From: a virus
Taxonomy: Duplodnaviria; Caudoviricetes
Length of the DNA stretch: 34,800 nt
Direction: 5' to 3' (one strand)
Virus record (IMG/VR): IMGVR_UViG_3300030059_002600
Coordinates: 1-34,800 of that record
A program made the translations under genes and the position numbers. The notes under the pieces were generated by a model. The model saw only the letters and a program-made list of their open reading frames with translations, searched no databases and was not told the origin of the DNA. Shown here in pieces: positions 375 to 27,050 of this stretch (positions within the stretch are counted from its first letter, which is position 1; each line of letters begins with the position of its first letter).

Positions 375-507
375 ACCAAAGAAAGAGATAATGCGGGCCA
401 TGCGCCTGAAGCGTAAACAGATGGGCCTGGTTGAATTAAAATTATGGCTCACTCCTCAGCAAAAAGAAGCTGTTCAGAAACTTATGGCCAAGCTCACAAA
501 AGACTAG
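364..507 (+). CDS. Small basic putative DNA-binding protein (47 aa)
   Basis: SD AAGGA before ATG 364. MRLKRKQMGLVELKLWLTPQ resembles small ribbon-helix-helix-like phage/plasmid regulators. Confidence 0.55.
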   Translation: MPAKPKKEIMRAMRLKRKQMGLVELKLWLTPQQKEAVQKLMAKLTKD

Positions 508-899
508 CCAGCTCTGAATTTATTACTTAAAGTTATGGCGCGTTGGCCGACCTGTGTGGACCAGCGCGACCGTAACATTTCATCTGCTGCTGCTGCAAAG
601 TCTTTCTTTTCTATAGCGTTAATGGTCTTGCGGAACAGCATAAACCTAGATAAACCCATATTAAATATCATTTCCACAACTACATCTTTTCTGTTACCTG
701 TTAAACCATGATAAAAGTTAAATCGTTTTGCTTCGTGTTCTGACATTTTTAAATCATTTAACAACAGTATCTCAGCTTCTTCCTTAGTGATGCCTTTGTC
801 TAAGTTTCTTCCATACCCAATAGTGTTTGCGCCAGCAGTACATTGGTAAGGTGTAAGGCTTAAACCCTCATGGAATTTGACAGAAGATAATAAGCTCAT
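504..899 (-). CDS. Endolysin, T4-type lysozyme (GH24)
   Basis: HEG-x7-C-x5-TIGYGRNL catalytic region, MIFNMG and C-terminal SRWSTQVGQRA. No SAR or signal segment. Confidence 0.92.
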   Translation of the reverse strand: MSLLSSVKFHEGLSLTPYQCTAGANTIGYGRNLDKGITKEEAEILLLNDLKMSEHEAKRFNFYHGLTGNRKDVVVEMIFNMGLSRFMLFRKTINAIEKKDFAAAADEMLRSRWSTQVGQRAITLSNKFRAG

Positions 900-1234
900 T
901 TTTTATCCCAGAAAGCGGCTTCTCCAAAAGTTTTAACAGCCCAATACATTTTCAAAGATCGTCTTCTCCTTAAAAATATAAACCATTTGTTATTATCATC
1001 TATCTTTCTAACTAGATTGTTCAAGAATATACGATCAGCATATTCCTTATCTGCCAGCGTTACCCCTTGGCTATACATGTAGTCATGGATATTGCAGCAA
1101 TCGGTTATATTTAACCCCCATATTGAATCAGGGACTAGCCATCCTCCCAGCCCTTTTGACCCGCACCCATTGCATAGCCGAGATTTTTCAGAAGCAGAGA
1201 GAGCCCTGTAGCCCTCCGGTTCAAACAGTGTCAT
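896..1234 (-). CDS. Phospholipase A2-like protein (sPLA2/DUF1353-like fold)
   Basis: CNGCGS ... DCCNIHDYMY ... ADRIF matches the sPLA2 loop, His-Asp dyad and second Asp. Its stop overlaps the lysozyme start (ATGA). Confidence 0.7.
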   Translation of the reverse strand: MTLFEPEGYRALSASEKSRLCNGCGSKGLGGWLVPDSIWGLNITDCCNIHDYMYSQGVTLADKEYADRIFLNNLVRKIDDNNKWFIFLRRRRSLKMYWAVKTFGEAAFWDKK

Positions 1235-1245
1235 ATATTTTTCCC

Positions 1246-1274
1246 AAAAAAAACCCCCATATTTCAGGGGGCTT
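1246..1274 (-). terminator. Intrinsic terminator ahead of the lysis genes
   Basis: Minus strand AAGCCCCC-TGAAATAT-GGGGG followed by T8. Confidence 0.75.
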
Positions 1275-1282
1275 AAATAACT

Positions 1283-1348
1283 TCATTTTTTCTTTTTTTT
1301 CTTTTTTACTGTTTTATATGGATATTTTTTACCATTCACAATCGGCAT
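1283..1348 (-). CDS. 21-aa cationic micropeptide MPIVNGKKYPYKTVKKKKKKK (not in ORF track)
   Basis: ATG overlaps the upstream TAA (TAATG) and the frame is open to TGA 1283-1285. Confidence 0.6.
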   Translation of the reverse strand: MPIVNGKKYPYKTVKKKKKKK

Positions 1349-1806
1349 TAAACGGCCTCCAGTTCTTCAATGGTTTCAGCATCTGCAACTAACTTTTCAC
1401 GACCATTACCATTGATGCGTAGCTCTGCGACCTCGCTCCATTTTAGTTTATATATAGTTACTGACTTGTCTGCTTCCTTAGCATCCAGAAACTCTGCCAA
1501 AAGATTACGCTGGCTTGTAGCATCACCTACAACTTCCACAATGTCAGCAGCCGTCTTTGCATCAATGGCAGCAATCTTTAAGGTTTTAGCTTCTGCAAGT
1601 TCTTGAGCCAAACGTAAAGCTTCTTCTTGTTCTAACCTTTCAGCCTCCATTTCGTCAGCATTTTCTTTTAGCACTAGCTCACCATCTACAACCTCATATG
1701 ATGGTGCGTTGTACTTGCTAAAAAAATCATCAGGCACTTGCATATCTAATGCTTCTGAATAGCTTGCGCTGACAATCTCACCATCAACTATCTGTAAGCC
1801 AATCAT
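1348..1806 (-). CDS. Tail fibre assembly-like protein
   Basis: Follows the fibre genes. Acidic, ending ...LVADAETIEELEAV as in tail-fibre chaperones. Confidence 0.55.
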   Translation of the reverse strand: MIGLQIVDGEIVSASYSEALDMQVPDDFFSKYNAPSYEVVDGELVLKENADEMEAERLEQEEALRLAQELAEAKTLKIAAIDAKTAADIVEVVGDATSQRNLLAEFLDAKEADKSVTIYKLKWSEVAELRINGNGREKLVADAETIEELEAV

Positions 1807-2330
1807 GCGTTATTTGCCCAATTAACCATATCTTGTCCATCAGAATTACGAATGACAACACAACGATATTGAATGCCTTGACTAGAACTAACGCTGCTTA
1901 TGTGACGGAAACTTGATGTTTTTCCTTTCTGCAAAACAAACCCACGGCTATTACGGTTTGACATAGCTTTATTGTCAGGTGGACTAGTGGCAGTTGCCCC
2001 TATGAATTGATACGTAATTCCCTTTAAGAAAGTACCGCTATCAAAATTTAAACCTTTTTCTTCAAGCTCATTCCATTTATTATCGCCCTGTGAAGTACTA
2101 CCATCGCTGTTGCTGTATTCATCCCAATAAAACCAATACTGCGCTTGTGTCTCTCTATAATAGCGACCATAGATATGCACTGTCGCATCAACACCGTAGC
2201 CTGAAAAGGTTTGAACGGTAGTGGCTGCGCCATTGCCAGTGTAGGTTACCCATCCACTGTCGTAAAGCACAGGATTAACTACTGCTGCTGCTGCTTCTTC
2301 TTCTGCTGGTACTATTGATACTAAGCTCAT
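1803..2330 (-). CDS. Putative tail-tip/receptor-binding accessory protein
   Basis: Position, YDSGW motif and beta-rich composition. Confidence 0.5.
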   Translation of the reverse strand: MSLVSIVPAEEEAAAAVVNPVLYDSGWVTYTGNGAATTVQTFSGYGVDATVHIYGRYYRETQAQYWFYWDEYSNSDGSTSQGDNKWNELEEKGLNFDSGTFLKGITYQFIGATATSPPDNKAMSNRNSRGFVLQKGKTSSFRHISSVSSSQGIQYRCVVIRNSDGQDMVNWANNA

Positions 2331-2331
2331 A

Positions 2332-3687
2332 CTATGCTACTCCTTCGATTAATACACCATCGGCATATACTTTGTGTGTTACTGCTCTTGCTGTTGTTGC
2401 ACCAGCTATTAAATGAATGGGAATATTAGCAATTGATGAGGCATCATTGTTACTCGCAGGCTCTATATACCCTGAAGCGAAATAACTACTTGACTGCATT
2501 TGAGTGGTATTTGCAGTCATAGTGTTTACGTCTATATACACCATGACACTGTTATAAAAGAAGACTCCTATTCCTGGGGCAACTTCCATTCCTAGGTTAC
2601 CGTATTCAGTTGATGTACCAAGACTGTACATAGTCACGCTAGGGCTTCTGGTAAAATCGGATAATTTAATAATGTTATTTTTGTCAGTACCTTGACCAAC
2701 CTCTATGATATAGAACTCACCGTCAGCTCTTTTCGTGACAATTGCTCCGGCAGAATACGACCCGATACCACAGCCTGTCAGTGTCACAACAGCACCAGTA
2801 GTGACGTTTATTTTAAACAGATCACCTATAGTTGCAGTGCCGTGAATATATATATGCCCGTCGTGGTAAATTGTAAAACCACCCTGATTATCTGATTGAC
2901 CTAGAATATTTCTCGACATAGTGATGGTTGATGATACGTTGCCGACTATTGTTCGACGATATAAATACGGGTCATTGCCAGTGTCTACCGCGTAAATATA
3001 TGTGCCATCCGTACAAGCACCATTAGTACCTCCGCCAAAATCAAAAGAATCATTGTTTGCGTTGCCGCCACCCGTGTTCCAAGTGATTAAAGCACCCGCT
3101 GCATTGTATGCTTTTGCTTGGTTTGAATACATCGAAAAATATACTTTGTCTCCCGCTGCTATCGCAGGGCTGGAAGCTGGTGAATTGTTTGCATCTAAAA
3201 TTAAACCGAAAGCAGATCTGGCAGGCCGAGTGAGACTTCCTGTTCGTACAGAGCTAAACTTTCCAACAGTATCGGTAAATGTTGTTACATTAGCTGGATC
3301 TCTAGGAGTGCCCGTACTATCCGCCCATTTAAATATTCCAGAGCCATCACCGCCAAAGTACCTAGCATCCTGATAACCGTTTGTTACTTGGTCTGCGCCA
3401 GTGTCAAATTTAATATTTACGGTGCTGCTTACATCTACAATCTGTGAACCCGATAATGTGTCAGAGTTCTTGACCGTCTTTAATGTTGTCTTAGGCGTTG
3501 TAAGATTTGCATTGCCGTTAGTAAGAGTGGCAGTTACAGGGTACTTTGGATCTACAGCCTCATAAGATATTGTTTTTAAAACCGCTTGCTCACTTGAGCT
3601 TGTGGCCTTAATAACAACATTGGTTATTGCTGATGTTGATACGGAGGGTGCAGTGTTGACAAACACCTTTAATTTTTCTGTTGCCAT
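2332..3687 (-). CDS. Putative receptor-binding protein (beta-propeller-like core)
   Basis: 451 aa, rich in T/S/G/N, with blade-like segments (TDGTYIYAV, HDGHIYIHG, LFKINVTTG). Confidence 0.55.
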   Translation of the reverse strand: MATEKLKVFVNTAPSVSTSAITNVVIKATSSSEQAVLKTISYEAVDPKYPVTATLTNGNANLTTPKTTLKTVKNSDTLSGSQIVDVSSTVNIKFDTGADQVTNGYQDARYFGGDGSGIFKWADSTGTPRDPANVTTFTDTVGKFSSVRTGSLTRPARSAFGLILDANNSPASSPAIAAGDKVYFSMYSNQAKAYNAAGALITWNTGGGNANNDSFDFGGGTNGACTDGTYIYAVDTGNDPYLYRRTIVGNVSSTITMSRNILGQSDNQGGFTIYHDGHIYIHGTATIGDLFKINVTTGAVVTLTGCGIGSYSAGAIVTKRADGEFYIIEVGQGTDKNNIIKLSDFTRSPSVTMYSLGTSTEYGNLGMEVAPGIGVFFYNSVMVYIDVNTMTANTTQMQSSSYFASGYIEPASNNDASSIANIPIHLIAGATTARAVTHKVYADGVLIEGVA

Positions 3688-19629: not shown

Positions 19630-19990
19630 TTGTCACTTTAATATCTTTAACCGCGTCATTGACAGTAAAAGAAATATTAAGAGGTGGGGACTCTTCTTCA
19701 TTCTCAGCTTTAGCCTCGGACCATCCCGCCTGAGTCTTTAAGTAAAATATAGCAGCTGATACGTTTCCAGCTTTTGCCTGGCCTATGAGGTTTGAACCAA
19801 TAGCCCCAATAGCTTTTGCCTTGCCTCTTTTATAAGACCGAAAAACCTCCGCATCTCTTTTCTTTATTGCAGCAAAAGTATCGGCATCAATACCAAAATA
19901 ATCAGCTATCTGCTCTTGATTTAATACAGCCGCGAGAGTCTCAACTTCCTTAGCTTGTTCTGGTGTTAGTGTCTTTTTAGGCCGCGCCAT
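19616..19990 (-). CDS. terS: Terminase small subunit
   Basis: MARP, HTH QIADYFGI...TF and AAIFYLK; directly upstream of terL. Confidence 0.8.
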   Translation of the reverse strand: MARPKKTLTPEQAKEVETLAAVLNQEQIADYFGIDADTFAAIKKRDAEVFRSYKRGKAKAIGAIGSNLIGQAKAGNVSAAIFYLKTQAGWSEAKAENEEESPPLNISFTVNDAVKDIKVTNART

Positions 19991-21227
19991 TCTGCACCGC
20001 CAGTAACTCGTTATATGTTTTACCGCTTTCTTCGTGTGTTGCTTCTTTGCCTGTGAAGTTTTGCCAGCGCTTGATAATTACATCAACGTATTTTTCGTCT
20101 AATTCCATTAATCTTGCGTGTCGATTTACTTTCTCGCAGGAGATCATAGTTGTTCCAGATCCGCCAAATAAATCAAGGCACACACCATTCACCTGACTTC
20201 CATCAATCAACGCCTTATCGACAAGTTCTATTGGCTTCATTGTTGGATGCAAATCGTTTTTGCTAGTTCGTTTAATTCTCCAAATATCCATGCCGTTATT
20301 CCCGCCATAGAATTTGTGGTTATTAACCCATCCGTAAAACATAGGCTCATACATACTCATGTAGTCACTATTGCTTAATGTGTGGTTACCCTTATCCCAT
20401 ATAATAAGACTTCTATGTTTAAGCCCTGTTCGCGCCATGCTTGAGTAATATTTATCAATGCCTAGCCTGTAGAATGTTATGTAAAAAGCTCCATCAACAA
20501 CCTGAAGGATGATAGAGTTAATCGCATCCAAGAAGTCAGCCCCCTCTTGATCGGTCATTTTGTCGTTCTTTATAGCGCCATGCATTGCATTAAAACTCTT
20601 GGAGCCGTCAGCATGGATGCCACCAGTAAAATCCATTTGGTACGGAGGATCTGTAAAGCACATATTTGCAACGCCGCCATCAAGCAATGTATTTACAGCA
20701 TCTATGCTGGTACTGTCGCCGCACATTAATCGATGGTTGCCTAGTATCCACATATCACCTAATACGCTCACGGGTGTTTCTGGCAATTCTGGGACATCAT
20801 CTTCATCCGTTAAGCCTTCAACCTGTTCAGGCTCTAACAGTAAAGCGAGCTCATCAACGTCAAAACCAATTAAAGATAAATCGAAATCTTCTTTTTGCAG
20901 TGCCTCTAGCTCTAAGGAGAGGAGCTCATCATTCCAACCAGCATTTAGGGCCAGCTTATTATCAGCGATTATATAGGCTTTCTTTTGAATATCAGAAAGG
21001 CCGTCTAAGGTTATTGTTGGGACCTCATCCAGGCCTAATTTCCTAGCAGCTTGAACCCTTCCATGACCTGCAATAATGCTACTTTTACTGTCCAAAAGTA
21101 TTGGATTTGTAAAGCCAAACTCAGAAATGCTTGCAGCAACCTGAGCTACCTGCTCGTCGCTATGCGTTCTGCTGTTATTTATATACGGTATAAGGTCATC
21201 GGTTGGGCGGTATTTAATTTGTAACAT
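19977..21227 (-). CDS. ParB/Srx-domain DNA amino-methyltransferase (N6A/N4C, beta class)
   Basis: ParB-like IIAGHGR and ADNKL; FTDPPY, HPTMKP and DLFGGSG. Confidence 0.92.
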   Translation of the reverse strand: MLQIKYRPTDDLIPYINNSRTHSDEQVAQVAASISEFGFTNPILLDSKSSIIAGHGRVQAARKLGLDEVPTITLDGLSDIQKKAYIIADNKLALNAGWNDELLSLELEALQKEDFDLSLIGFDVDELALLLEPEQVEGLTDEDDVPELPETPVSVLGDMWILGNHRLMCGDSTSIDAVNTLLDGGVANMCFTDPPYQMDFTGGIHADGSKSFNAMHGAIKNDKMTDQEGADFLDAINSIILQVVDGAFYITFYRLGIDKYYSSMARTGLKHRSLIIWDKGNHTLSNSDYMSMYEPMFYGWVNNHKFYGGNNGMDIWRIKRTSKNDLHPTMKPIELVDKALIDGSQVNGVCLDLFGGSGTTMISCEKVNRHARLMELDEKYVDVIIKRWQNFTGKEATHEESGKTYNELLAVQNGAA

Positions 21228-25820: not shown

Positions 25821-26226
25821 TAAAAGTCTCCCTCGACGGAAAAGCTACATGAACACCTTTCGATGCTGTGTAATTATTAATTTCTTCATAAATTACGTTT
25901 ACCTCTGAAGTAACTAGCTCTGATGTTGAGTCTTTATCCGTCAAAGCCGACATCACGGGCCGCCATATAAGCTCTTTAACTAAAGTCTCGGACCAGGAGA
26001 TATCGAGAGGTTTACTTAATGTCTTTTCAACAGTAAAACCAGCATCATTAAAAGCGTTTGCCAGCAACCGATAATATTGATGAATAGCGTTGTTTTGCAG
26101 ATAGGTTCTTTGCTGCGGCTTACCTAACTCAACCTCAATAACCTCGCCAGGCTGTATTTTTTTTAGACTATCGTCCAGTGGCATAAAATAGCCCTTATCT
26201 GTTTTAACGAGCAACGCCTTAGTCAT
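25810..26226 (-). CDS. NinB-like recombination protein
   Basis: RTYLQNNAIH ... STSEL...E. Confidence 0.65.
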   Translation of the reverse strand: MTKALLVKTDKGYFMPLDDSLKKIQPGEVIEVELGKPQQRTYLQNNAIHQYYRLLANAFNDAGFTVEKTLSKPLDISWSETLVKELIWRPVMSALTDKDSTSELVTSEVNVIYEEINNYTASKGVHVAFPSRETFNGQ

Positions 26227-27050
26227 GTGTGACACCATGAACAACTAACTTCATTCTTTGGCAGAGCTTCCGAAAACATATCAACCTGTGTATCTCTTAA
26301 CTCAAACTGTTCTATTAATTTAGCAACAGTCTTGTCACCATAAAAAAAGGAATGAGGAAGGCCAGTTGTTGACGGTTTATCTTGATTTATTTTAGCTTCA
26401 ACAACAGCTAACTTCTTAATATTGGCTTTGCCTTCTTGAGTTTGCCAGACGTTGTACCATGATCTTTCGCTTGATAAAACGCATGGATAACAACCGACCC
26501 TGGAAGCACCAATTTCATACAGAGGGTTTTTTTTAATATTGTGGCGCGAATGAATGTCCCATACGTCCACATCACTCCACTCGACAATAGGCGTTCTAAT
26601 ATTAACGTGGCTAAAGTCCCTCTTTGAAAACTCAGGTAATTCAGAAATAGGATATAAACTGTCAAATGTTAAACCCTTGTATCTCCTTGCTCTAGCACTT
26701 GACTCGGCAGTTCTAACGCCTATCCAGCTTTCAGTAATATCTTTATTTTTTAATAAAAACTCTTTGGATGGCTTGAGTTTTAGGTTAGAAGTGCAAAACC
26801 TAGCCATAGTGTTTGGTAGCATTTGTTTTTGTGTGATTAAATCCAACAACCCCTTGTACTGGCTATTTTTGAGCATTTCTATCTTAATGCCTGTTTTTTT
26901 TTCAATATAATTTAAGTACAAATAATGGGATGAATGTTCAAAGCCAGTGTCTTGATAACACGCAACAAAATCAATATCTAGCTCAATAGCCAACAGCAGC
27001 ATAGCTGTAGAATCTTTACCGCCAGAATAATTGAGCATAACTTTTGTCAT
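26223..27050 (-). CDS. PAPS reductase-family (PP-loop) protein
   Basis: SGGKDS, DTGFEH, RFCT..LK, IGVR..ES..R, NPLY and RVGCYPC. Confidence 0.9.
   Translation of the reverse strand: MTKVMLNYSGGKDSTAMLLLAIELDIDFVACYQDTGFEHSSHYLYLNYIEKKTGIKIEMLKNSQYKGLLDLITQKQMLPNTMARFCTSNLKLKPSKEFLLKNKDITESWIGVRTAESSARARRYKGLTFDSLYPISELPEFSKRDFSHVNIRTPIVEWSDVDVWDIHSRHNIKKNPLYEIGASRVGCYPCVLSSERSWYNVWQTQEGKANIKKLAVVEAKINQDKPSTTGLPHSFFYGDKTVAKLIEQFELRDTQVDMFSEALPKNEVSCSWCHT

Follow-up and report, generated by a model that had tools for sequence, protein, structure and literature searches.

A phospholipase A2-like gene overlapping the lysozyme gene of a marine phage in which no spanin was found

The 112-aa protein encoded just upstream of the lysozyme gene in the window (the whole stretch of 34,800 nucleotides analysed here, IMG/VR record IMGVR_UViG_3300030059_002600) is well supported as a secreted-type phospholipase A2 (PLA2)-fold protein with intact active-site residues, judging from its predicted structure and from profile comparisons. 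A tie of its family to lysis genes is likewise well supported by gene neighbourhoods, and the family is real, apparently undescribed and enriched in phage lysis cassettes; searches of the open-access literature gave no paper describing phage lysis by a secreted-type PLA2. As to its function, we somewhat favour a holin-gated lipase that contributes to lysis by weakening the membranes of the envelope, both the activity and the role being predictions. Replacement of a spanin by this PLA2 is plausible, and exclusion between PLA2s and spanins is only suggestive. The relevant features are listed in the table.

Table. Features of the window around the PLA2-like gene and in the late block
Feature	Position	Strand	Remarks
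Phage lysozyme (GH24-type endolysin), 131 aa	504..899	-	PF00959 E 9e-16; phrog_7 endolysin
Secreted-type (group XIV/DUF1353-like) PLA2-fold protein, 112 aa	896..1234	-	Predicted catalytic H50/D67, Ca-ligand D51
Intrinsic-terminator-like hairpin and U-run	1251..1274	-	Between peptide gene and PLA2 start; pattern only
21-aa Lys-rich peptide gene	1283..1348	-	Directly upstream of PLA2; no PHROG model
Last gene of distal tail block	1348..1806	-	Near-identical in podophage L004, where PLA2 also follows it
Likely holin, 76 aa	21284..21514	-	phrog_1350 E 9e-9; one predicted TM segment, 31-49

The PLA2-like protein and its family

The ORF is a real gene, because in comparisons with six close homologues silent codon differences number 20-44 and replacements 15-20, and because the family profile matches 2155 clusters (50% identity; E 0.001); the family members are mostly viral. 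The first-pass annotation, made from the sequence alone, had noticed the motifs CNGCGS, DCCNIHDYMY and ADRIF and an overlap of the stop codon with the lysozyme start. All of these are there: the motifs lie at residues 21-26, 45-54 and 66-70, and TGA (896-898) and ATG (897-899) share a 4-nt ATGA overlap. Among 150 representatives of the family, H50 and D51 are invariant (150/150 each) and D67 is kept in 144. Both C24 and C47 are present in 133 representatives and both are missing in 16, with a gap in the remaining one; this covariation fits a disulfide, and the Cys-less rows may represent few lineages. The window protein has no signal peptide or hydrophobic N-terminus, and only 2 of the 150 representatives have a hydrophobic N-terminus, both probably owing to over-extended starts. 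A search for longer or fused forms gave 2 weak proteins and no lysis fusion, which is weak evidence.

The AlphaFold (AF2) model of the protein (pLDDT 82) is PLA2-like, as the annotation had expected. The top five Foldseek matches in PDB were all bacterial or fungal PLA2s, with weak E-values of 0.034-1.2, and VIA placed the model on the Tuber PLA2 4aup with Z 9.9 and rmsd 2.8 over 95 residues, the next row being at Z 6.2. Searching PDB with the single sequence gave no match, and the family profile alone succeeded: the profile of 69 sequences matched 1faz (Streptomyces PLA2) at E 3.5e-8 and also 4aup, 7ygk and 8k1w. These four are solved group XIV enzymes, and their CxxHD motif, downstream Asp and last helix are in register with the profile. 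Among the weak fold matches are parvoviral capsid PLA2 domains, and the ORF also weakly matches phrog_1158, labelled tail assembly chaperone (E 1.6e-4).

With regard to named families, NCBIfam has no model for this one, and the Pfam matches of the ORF were all below threshold: PF06951 (PLA2G12) at 19.3 versus 34 bits and PF07087 (DUF1353) at 16.1 versus 22.5 bits, while PF09056 gave no match at E 0.01. Of the 69 relatives, 37 weakly match PF07087 (best E 1.1e-4), 25 PF09056 (best E 2.9e-5) and 7 PF06951. The protein has the His-Asp motif and the downstream Asp of the secreted-type PLA2 superfamily and, in the predicted model, its helical core fold. Relative to group XIV, it stays below the PF09056 cut-off and lacks the secretion signal and one of the two disulfides, only the C24/C47 pair being conserved; relative to the DUF1353/TtaP class, it stays below the PF07087 cut-off and shares the small, signal-less, single-domain form and the His/Asp dyad. 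Thus, by profile scores, the family falls between DUF1353, PF09056 and PF06951 and within no named family by cut-off. The earlier proposal of a secreted-PLA2 pattern held for the fold and the catalytic residues and failed for group XII: besides the sub-threshold PF06951 score, the CCxxHDxCY pattern is broken, with Met at residue 53 and C46 kept in only 20 of 150 representatives. The closest relatives are instead group XIV and DUF1353/TtaP.

The same annotation had described a basic amphipathic tail. The segment is basic indeed (net +6), but in the model it is a core helix at about residues 86-103 with a hydrophobic moment of only 0.02-0.06, that is, a basic/aromatic patch and not an amphipathic tail. 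We also rejected a disruptin-type product, in which the whole protein would be an amphipathic cationic helix, on account of this low moment and the globular enzyme fold of the predicted model.

Lysis genes and spanins around the PLA2 gene

The window holds a complete circular phage genome of 34.7 kb, whose last 99 nt repeat the first 99; the record is classed as 100% complete with direct terminal repeats. By its gene set in Pfam and PHROG scans, the phage is a temperate siphophage of lambda-like type, with integrase, ERF/YqaJ recombination and O/P-like replication genes besides those for head, tail tube and tape measure. The phage is of marine source, and we infer a Gram-negative host from its terminase and capsid matches, for which the listed organisms are phages of Proteobacteria. 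On the minus strand the late genes run from the likely holin through head and tail genes to the PLA2 ORF and finally the lysozyme, so that the holin is the first gene of the block, about 20 kb upstream of the PLA2 on the same strand. The lysozyme has no transmembrane or SAR segment and therefore needs a holin to leave the cytoplasm. Elsewhere, a ParB-methyltransferase fusion (19977-21227, minus strand) lies between holin and terminase and a PAPS-reductase-domain gene (26223-27050) follows the replication genes; both are common phage genes.

Immediately upstream of the PLA2, the 21-aa peptide gene is coupled to the gene before it and, in the related siphophage L008, also to the PLA2 start. We considered this peptide as a partner of the PLA2 and rejected it. 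In 80 loci sampled from 4 of 64 parts of the collection, its family (about 2000 matches in viral contigs, common in aquatic phages, usually among tiny basic genes) never had a PLA2 nearby and had a detected endolysin nearby in 6, and the family is not specific to lysis modules. The hairpin downstream of the peptide gene is common to L007 and absent from L008, and terminator-pattern sites were as many as expected by chance (2 found versus 1.8). At 1235-1290 (minus strand), the peptide stop is followed by a remnant of an older PLA2 start as in L008, then by the hairpin and then by the present start, which looks like a recombination junction between alleles. The distal tail block (compared over 1348-3687), together with the PLA2, shows high identity to podophage L004, which suggests that it moved as a module between the siphophage and the podophage. 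A promoter scan of positions 1-2400 gave fewer sites than chance. Contigs from marine RNA libraries span the PLA2 in 2 of 4 runs of one sample, though contigs cannot show transcription.

The first-pass annotation had found no Rz/Rz1 pair or u-spanin in this genome, and all further searches agree with it. There was no spanin match among the 57 ORFs scanned with Pfam and PHROGs, and six-frame searches with phrog_739, phrog_456, PF03245 and PF06085 gave 0 matches. The lipobox scan of 1035 start-stop candidates found 2 lipobox-like motifs, both weak, on the early plus strand and neither paired with an i-spanin. A de novo spanin-pair detector, which recovers the pair of a Thiohalocapsa phage (its single positive control, its sensitivity being otherwise not established), called none, and the PLA2 itself has no lipobox or transmembrane anchor. 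The nested spanin of LambdaSo, missed by annotation, is a caution for such claims of absence (bioRxiv 10.1101/2024.01.23.576932).

To place the gene among its homologues, we compared 80 viral and 41 genome loci, of which 1 and 2, respectively, were left out for want of a callable PLA2 gene; 61 viral representatives and 39 genome loci formed 79 clusters at 80% identity. Neighbours at the viral loci (287 ORFs) were compared with PHROGs, and those at the genome loci (59 proteins, candidates picked by eye) with Pfam. An endolysin lies within three genes of the PLA2 in 42 of the 79 clusters, or 45 with putative ones, against about 10% for a random gene by a rough estimate (4 kb of a 40-kb genome). 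The endolysins belong to seven unrelated types (lysozyme, M15 peptidase, Amidase_2, Amidase_3, GH108, CHAP and phrog_938-type), which bears out the expectation that homologues sit next to endolysins. Moreover, 31 of the 79 clusters have a lipoprotein gene within two genes of the PLA2; by inspection these lipoproteins are without a Pro-rich o-spanin look and without an i-spanin. In 21 of the 34 clusters with no endolysin, a neighbour of the PLA2 is a small TM protein or a lipoprotein; the rest include sites with tail genes only in Halodesulfovibrio, a site on a Vibrio chromosome and, in Bdellovibrionota, regions of recombinase- or conjugation-like character.

The window's own cluster, counted once as having an endolysin, is mixed: siphophages L001 and L008 have the PLA2-lysozyme arrangement, and podophages L004 and L009 have a 77-aa TM gene before the PLA2 and a distant lysozyme. 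In podophages with at least 80% identical PLA2, the gene follows the tail block, and the lysozyme is about 10 kb off when the distance is taken across the genome ends (26 kb by contig coordinates; G001). The host labels of the 41 genome records are diderm in 37 (mainly Desulfobacterota) and unassigned in 1; the other 3 (an archaeon, an actinobacterium and a Chloroflexota bin) are non-diderm and possibly mis-binned phage contigs.

In the Bdellovibrionota genomes, the PLA2 homologues at L132, L135, L137 and L138 have no phage lysis genes as neighbours; next to them are genes for a recombinase and a Gly-zipper lipoprotein, together with conjugation-like membrane genes. A transglutaminase-like cysteine proteinase (PF06035) adjoins the PLA2 in lysis-like cassettes (L014:9387-9989, with a lipobox, and L046:4277-4789). 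Proteins of about 210 aa directly follow the PLA2 or the endolysin in L022:4029-4658, L060:10049-10702, L104:10389-11051, L114:7614-8276, L115:969-1610 and L302; they have a holin-like N-terminus and a second hydrophobic segment, several ending in a lipobox-like Cys, and possibly represent a holin-lipoprotein fusion or an unusual spanin topology. At the endolysin position of Mu-like phages there is a protein of about 190 aa (L070:9414-9989, L036:8966-9559, L047:8596-9183, L048:9384-9989 and L060:9050-9631), which has no Pfam or PHROG match and whose Atlas neighbours are VgrG3-like C-terminal (PF21277) and lysozyme-fold clusters; it is probably an unannotated endolysin family.

The relationship with spanins was examined against control loci, which came from lysozyme, amidase and Mu-type terminase alignments and were kept if they had enough flank and no PLA2 match. 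Raw spanin calls were made in 2 of 35 PLA2 cassettes and 16 of 91 control clusters (p 0.15). With a stricter o-spanin rule (Pro at least 7% or at least 2 Cys), chosen after seeing the data, the counts were 0 of 35 and 15 of 91 (p 0.011). This depletion could come from the differing host groups of the test and control sets alone. By position, the PLA2 occupies the spanin slot of the Mu-like phages: at 4 loci its start precedes terS by 1.28-1.81 kb, and at 7 loci the start of a spanin pair precedes terS by 1.2-1.45 kb. The same slot of sister Mu-like phages holds a 60-aa peptide, a single TM protein or a lipoprotein. The hydrophobic/amphipathic peptides of 60-63 aa in this slot (L302:4867-5049 and, with 63 aa, L305) are disruptin candidates.

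No credible spanin was detected in 15 near-complete PLA2-bearing genomes, in which 1 raw call was judged spurious, or in Vibrio phage 1.097.O. On the other hand, the complete Thiohalocapsa phage OP947165 has both: its homologue is intact and precedes a holin-like gene, and 3.4 kb from it lies an Rz/Rz1 pair whose genes overlap. Among the related lysozyme control clusters, 21 of 23 have neither a spanin call nor a PLA2 within 3 kb, so such phages lyse with neither system and spanin absence is the norm among these relatives. Because one phage has both and most of these clusters have neither, the PLA2 would be an optional helper rather than a required substitute. The anticorrelation with spanins that the first-pass annotation put up for testing is suggestive as to depletion and has this one phage against it; and of its proposal that a PLA2 may replace the spanin as a lysis factor, the PLA2 identity and the link to lysis genes stood up, while replacement is only suggestive, most related spanin-less lysozyme loci being without a PLA2.

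Possible roles of the phage PLA2

As a holin-gated lysis lipase, the PLA2 would be an active Ca2+-dependent enzyme, made late with the lysozyme and kept inactive in the cytoplasm by the low Ca2+ there and by the absence of the C24-C47 bond. Holin lesions would then release the protein and admit seawater Ca2+, and the basic helix would dock on anionic phospholipids, both in the inner membrane and in the outer membrane's inner leaflet, which the enzyme would cut. After removal of the wall by the lysozyme, lysolipids and fatty acids would destabilise the outer membrane, which this spanin-less phage has no means to fuse, and would help the host cell to burst. We infer the gating by Ca2+ and the C24-C47 bond from the conserved residues and general knowledge of secreted PLA2s; the results of a literature search included no statement about Ca ligands in the Streptomyces enzyme. 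In favour of such a lysis helper, we count the fold, the conserved H50/D51/D67, the endolysin and lipoprotein context, the Mu-like slot, the lack of a credible spanin in the near-complete PLA2-bearing genomes, the diderm hosts (37/41) and, as precedents, TtaP and LysB. Against it, a PLA2 cannot cut LPS in the outer leaflet. Also counted against it are the non-significant raw depletion, OP947165 with both systems, the 21 of 23 clusters with neither, the distant lysozyme of the podophages, the tail-only, chromosomal and conjugation-like contexts, the lack of a ttaP deletion phenotype and the weak Foldseek E-values (best 0.034). The PLA2 would be one optional solution among several in the slot and not a universal spanin substitute.

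A lipase confined to the inner membrane or to debris, which would enlarge the holin lesion, set its timing or release virions from membrane remnants while leaving the outer membrane untouched, fits the lack of an export signal and the fact that the inner membrane is met first. The PLA2 also adjoins holin-like TM genes in podophages L004 and L009 and in the spanin-bearing Thiohalocapsa phage. We nevertheless regard this restricted action as unlikely in view of the spanin slot held in Mu-like phages, the depleted spanin calls nearby and the frequent pairing with lipoprotein genes (31/79). Alternatively, the PLA2 might be a virion or tail enzyme for entry (membrane penetration) or for tail assembly, and the link to lysozyme would then reflect a shared position at the end of the tail block. 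The PLA2 does follow distal tail genes in the window phage and podophage L004, and tail genes with no endolysin beside in Halodesulfovibrio prophages; DUF1353 lies beside tail-fibre genes in the spanin-less phage KIRK (PMC7924643); and the weak matches to phrog_1158 and to the parvoviral capsid PLA2 point the same way. We nevertheless consider a virion or tail function improbable, since the PLA2 of Mu-like phages belongs to the lysis block that precedes the terminase, a long way from tail genes, and since endolysins of seven types accompany the family.

There may also be no need for a dedicated outer-membrane breaker, or another one may serve (the 21-aa cationic peptide or the lysozyme), with the PLA2 as dispensable cargo. 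This is consistent with the 21 of 23 lysozyme clusters without both systems. Of 677 phages of Gram-negative hosts, 91 (about 13%), many of them marine, have no spanin, and fragile outer membranes were proposed in that survey (PMC6139136). Moreover, cationic peptides can replace spanins, as with gp28 of phiKT (bioRxiv 10.1101/515445). Dispensable cargo is hard to reconcile with the near-invariant catalytic residues and the strong enrichment in lysis cassettes, and of the 80 loci sampled for the peptide family, none has a PLA2 close by and 6 have a detected endolysin; we give this explanation little credence. Returning to the holin-gated lipase, a broader version is doubtful though worth stating: phages of Gram-negative hosts would have an enzymatic outer-membrane route, in which the unnamed PLA2 family (over 2000 clusters) takes both the slot and the job of the spanin, is activated by Ca2+ and oxidation upon holin triggering, is often paired with a small lipoprotein and would be the Gram-negative counterpart of mycobacteriophage LysB.

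For the crossing of the outer membrane by spanin-less phages, the one substitute shown is the disruptin peptide. The PLA2, predicted to be a soluble enzyme of 112 aa, would be a further answer. If true, this would assign a function to a large phage family that lacks annotation and would suggest where TtaP, next to the muramidase of the typhoid toxin islet, came from. Should the lysis role fail, this would still be a new small PLA2 family.

Comparison with known enzymes and lysis systems

The group XIV PLA2s (Streptomyces violaceoruber 1FAZ/1LWB and Tuber borchii 4AUP; PF09056) share with the phage family the three-helix catalytic core, CxxHD and the Asp downstream of it; also aligned are a PD motif and, at the end, the Y-x-A-V-x-x-F-G helix. 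Unlike them, the phage PLA2 has no signal peptide and no second disulfide pair, carries a polybasic helix, a group XII-like NGCG loop and a Gly-rich insert, and is phage-encoded in lysis cassettes. TtaP (DUF1353, PF07087) of the Salmonella Typhi toxin islet is a proven PLA2 with prophage relatives; outer-membrane perturbation beside the muramidase TtsA is the preferred role proposed by the authors, a ttaP deletion showed no envelope or secretion phenotype, and Table S1 lists a lysozyme fusion (PMC11525133). It resembles the phage PLA2 in being small and signal-less, in its clan, His/Asp dyad and prophage relatives, and in having a muramidase in the same islet. On the other hand, it is without the group XIV Cys, whereas the phage family keeps C24/C47 in 133 of 150, and it serves a toxin islet and not a phage lysis module.

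Two other systems concern spanin-less phages. In phage WO, a phospholipase-based lysis by a patatin lytic cassette was proposed (PMC9203015); the patatin is of an unrelated phospholipase family and replaces the endolysin, whereas the window PLA2 accompanies it. The disruptin gp28 of phiKT is a non-enzymatic, cationic amphipathic peptide of 56 aa (bioRxiv 10.1101/515445); like the window PLA2 it is small, is not a spanin and would complete lysis in a phage without one. Between gp28 and the PLA2 there is no sequence or fold relation.

LysB of mycobacteriophages has an alpha/beta hydrolase fold. It performs enzymatically a third, spanin-like lysis step (PMC5707550), and like the phage PLA2 it is a lipolytic enzyme in a lysis cassette. 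LysB is a mycolyl-arabinogalactan esterase of phages of Actinobacteria, whereas the PLA2 is predicted to be all-helical and belongs to phages of LPS diderms. In concept, the window PLA2 may work like LysB.
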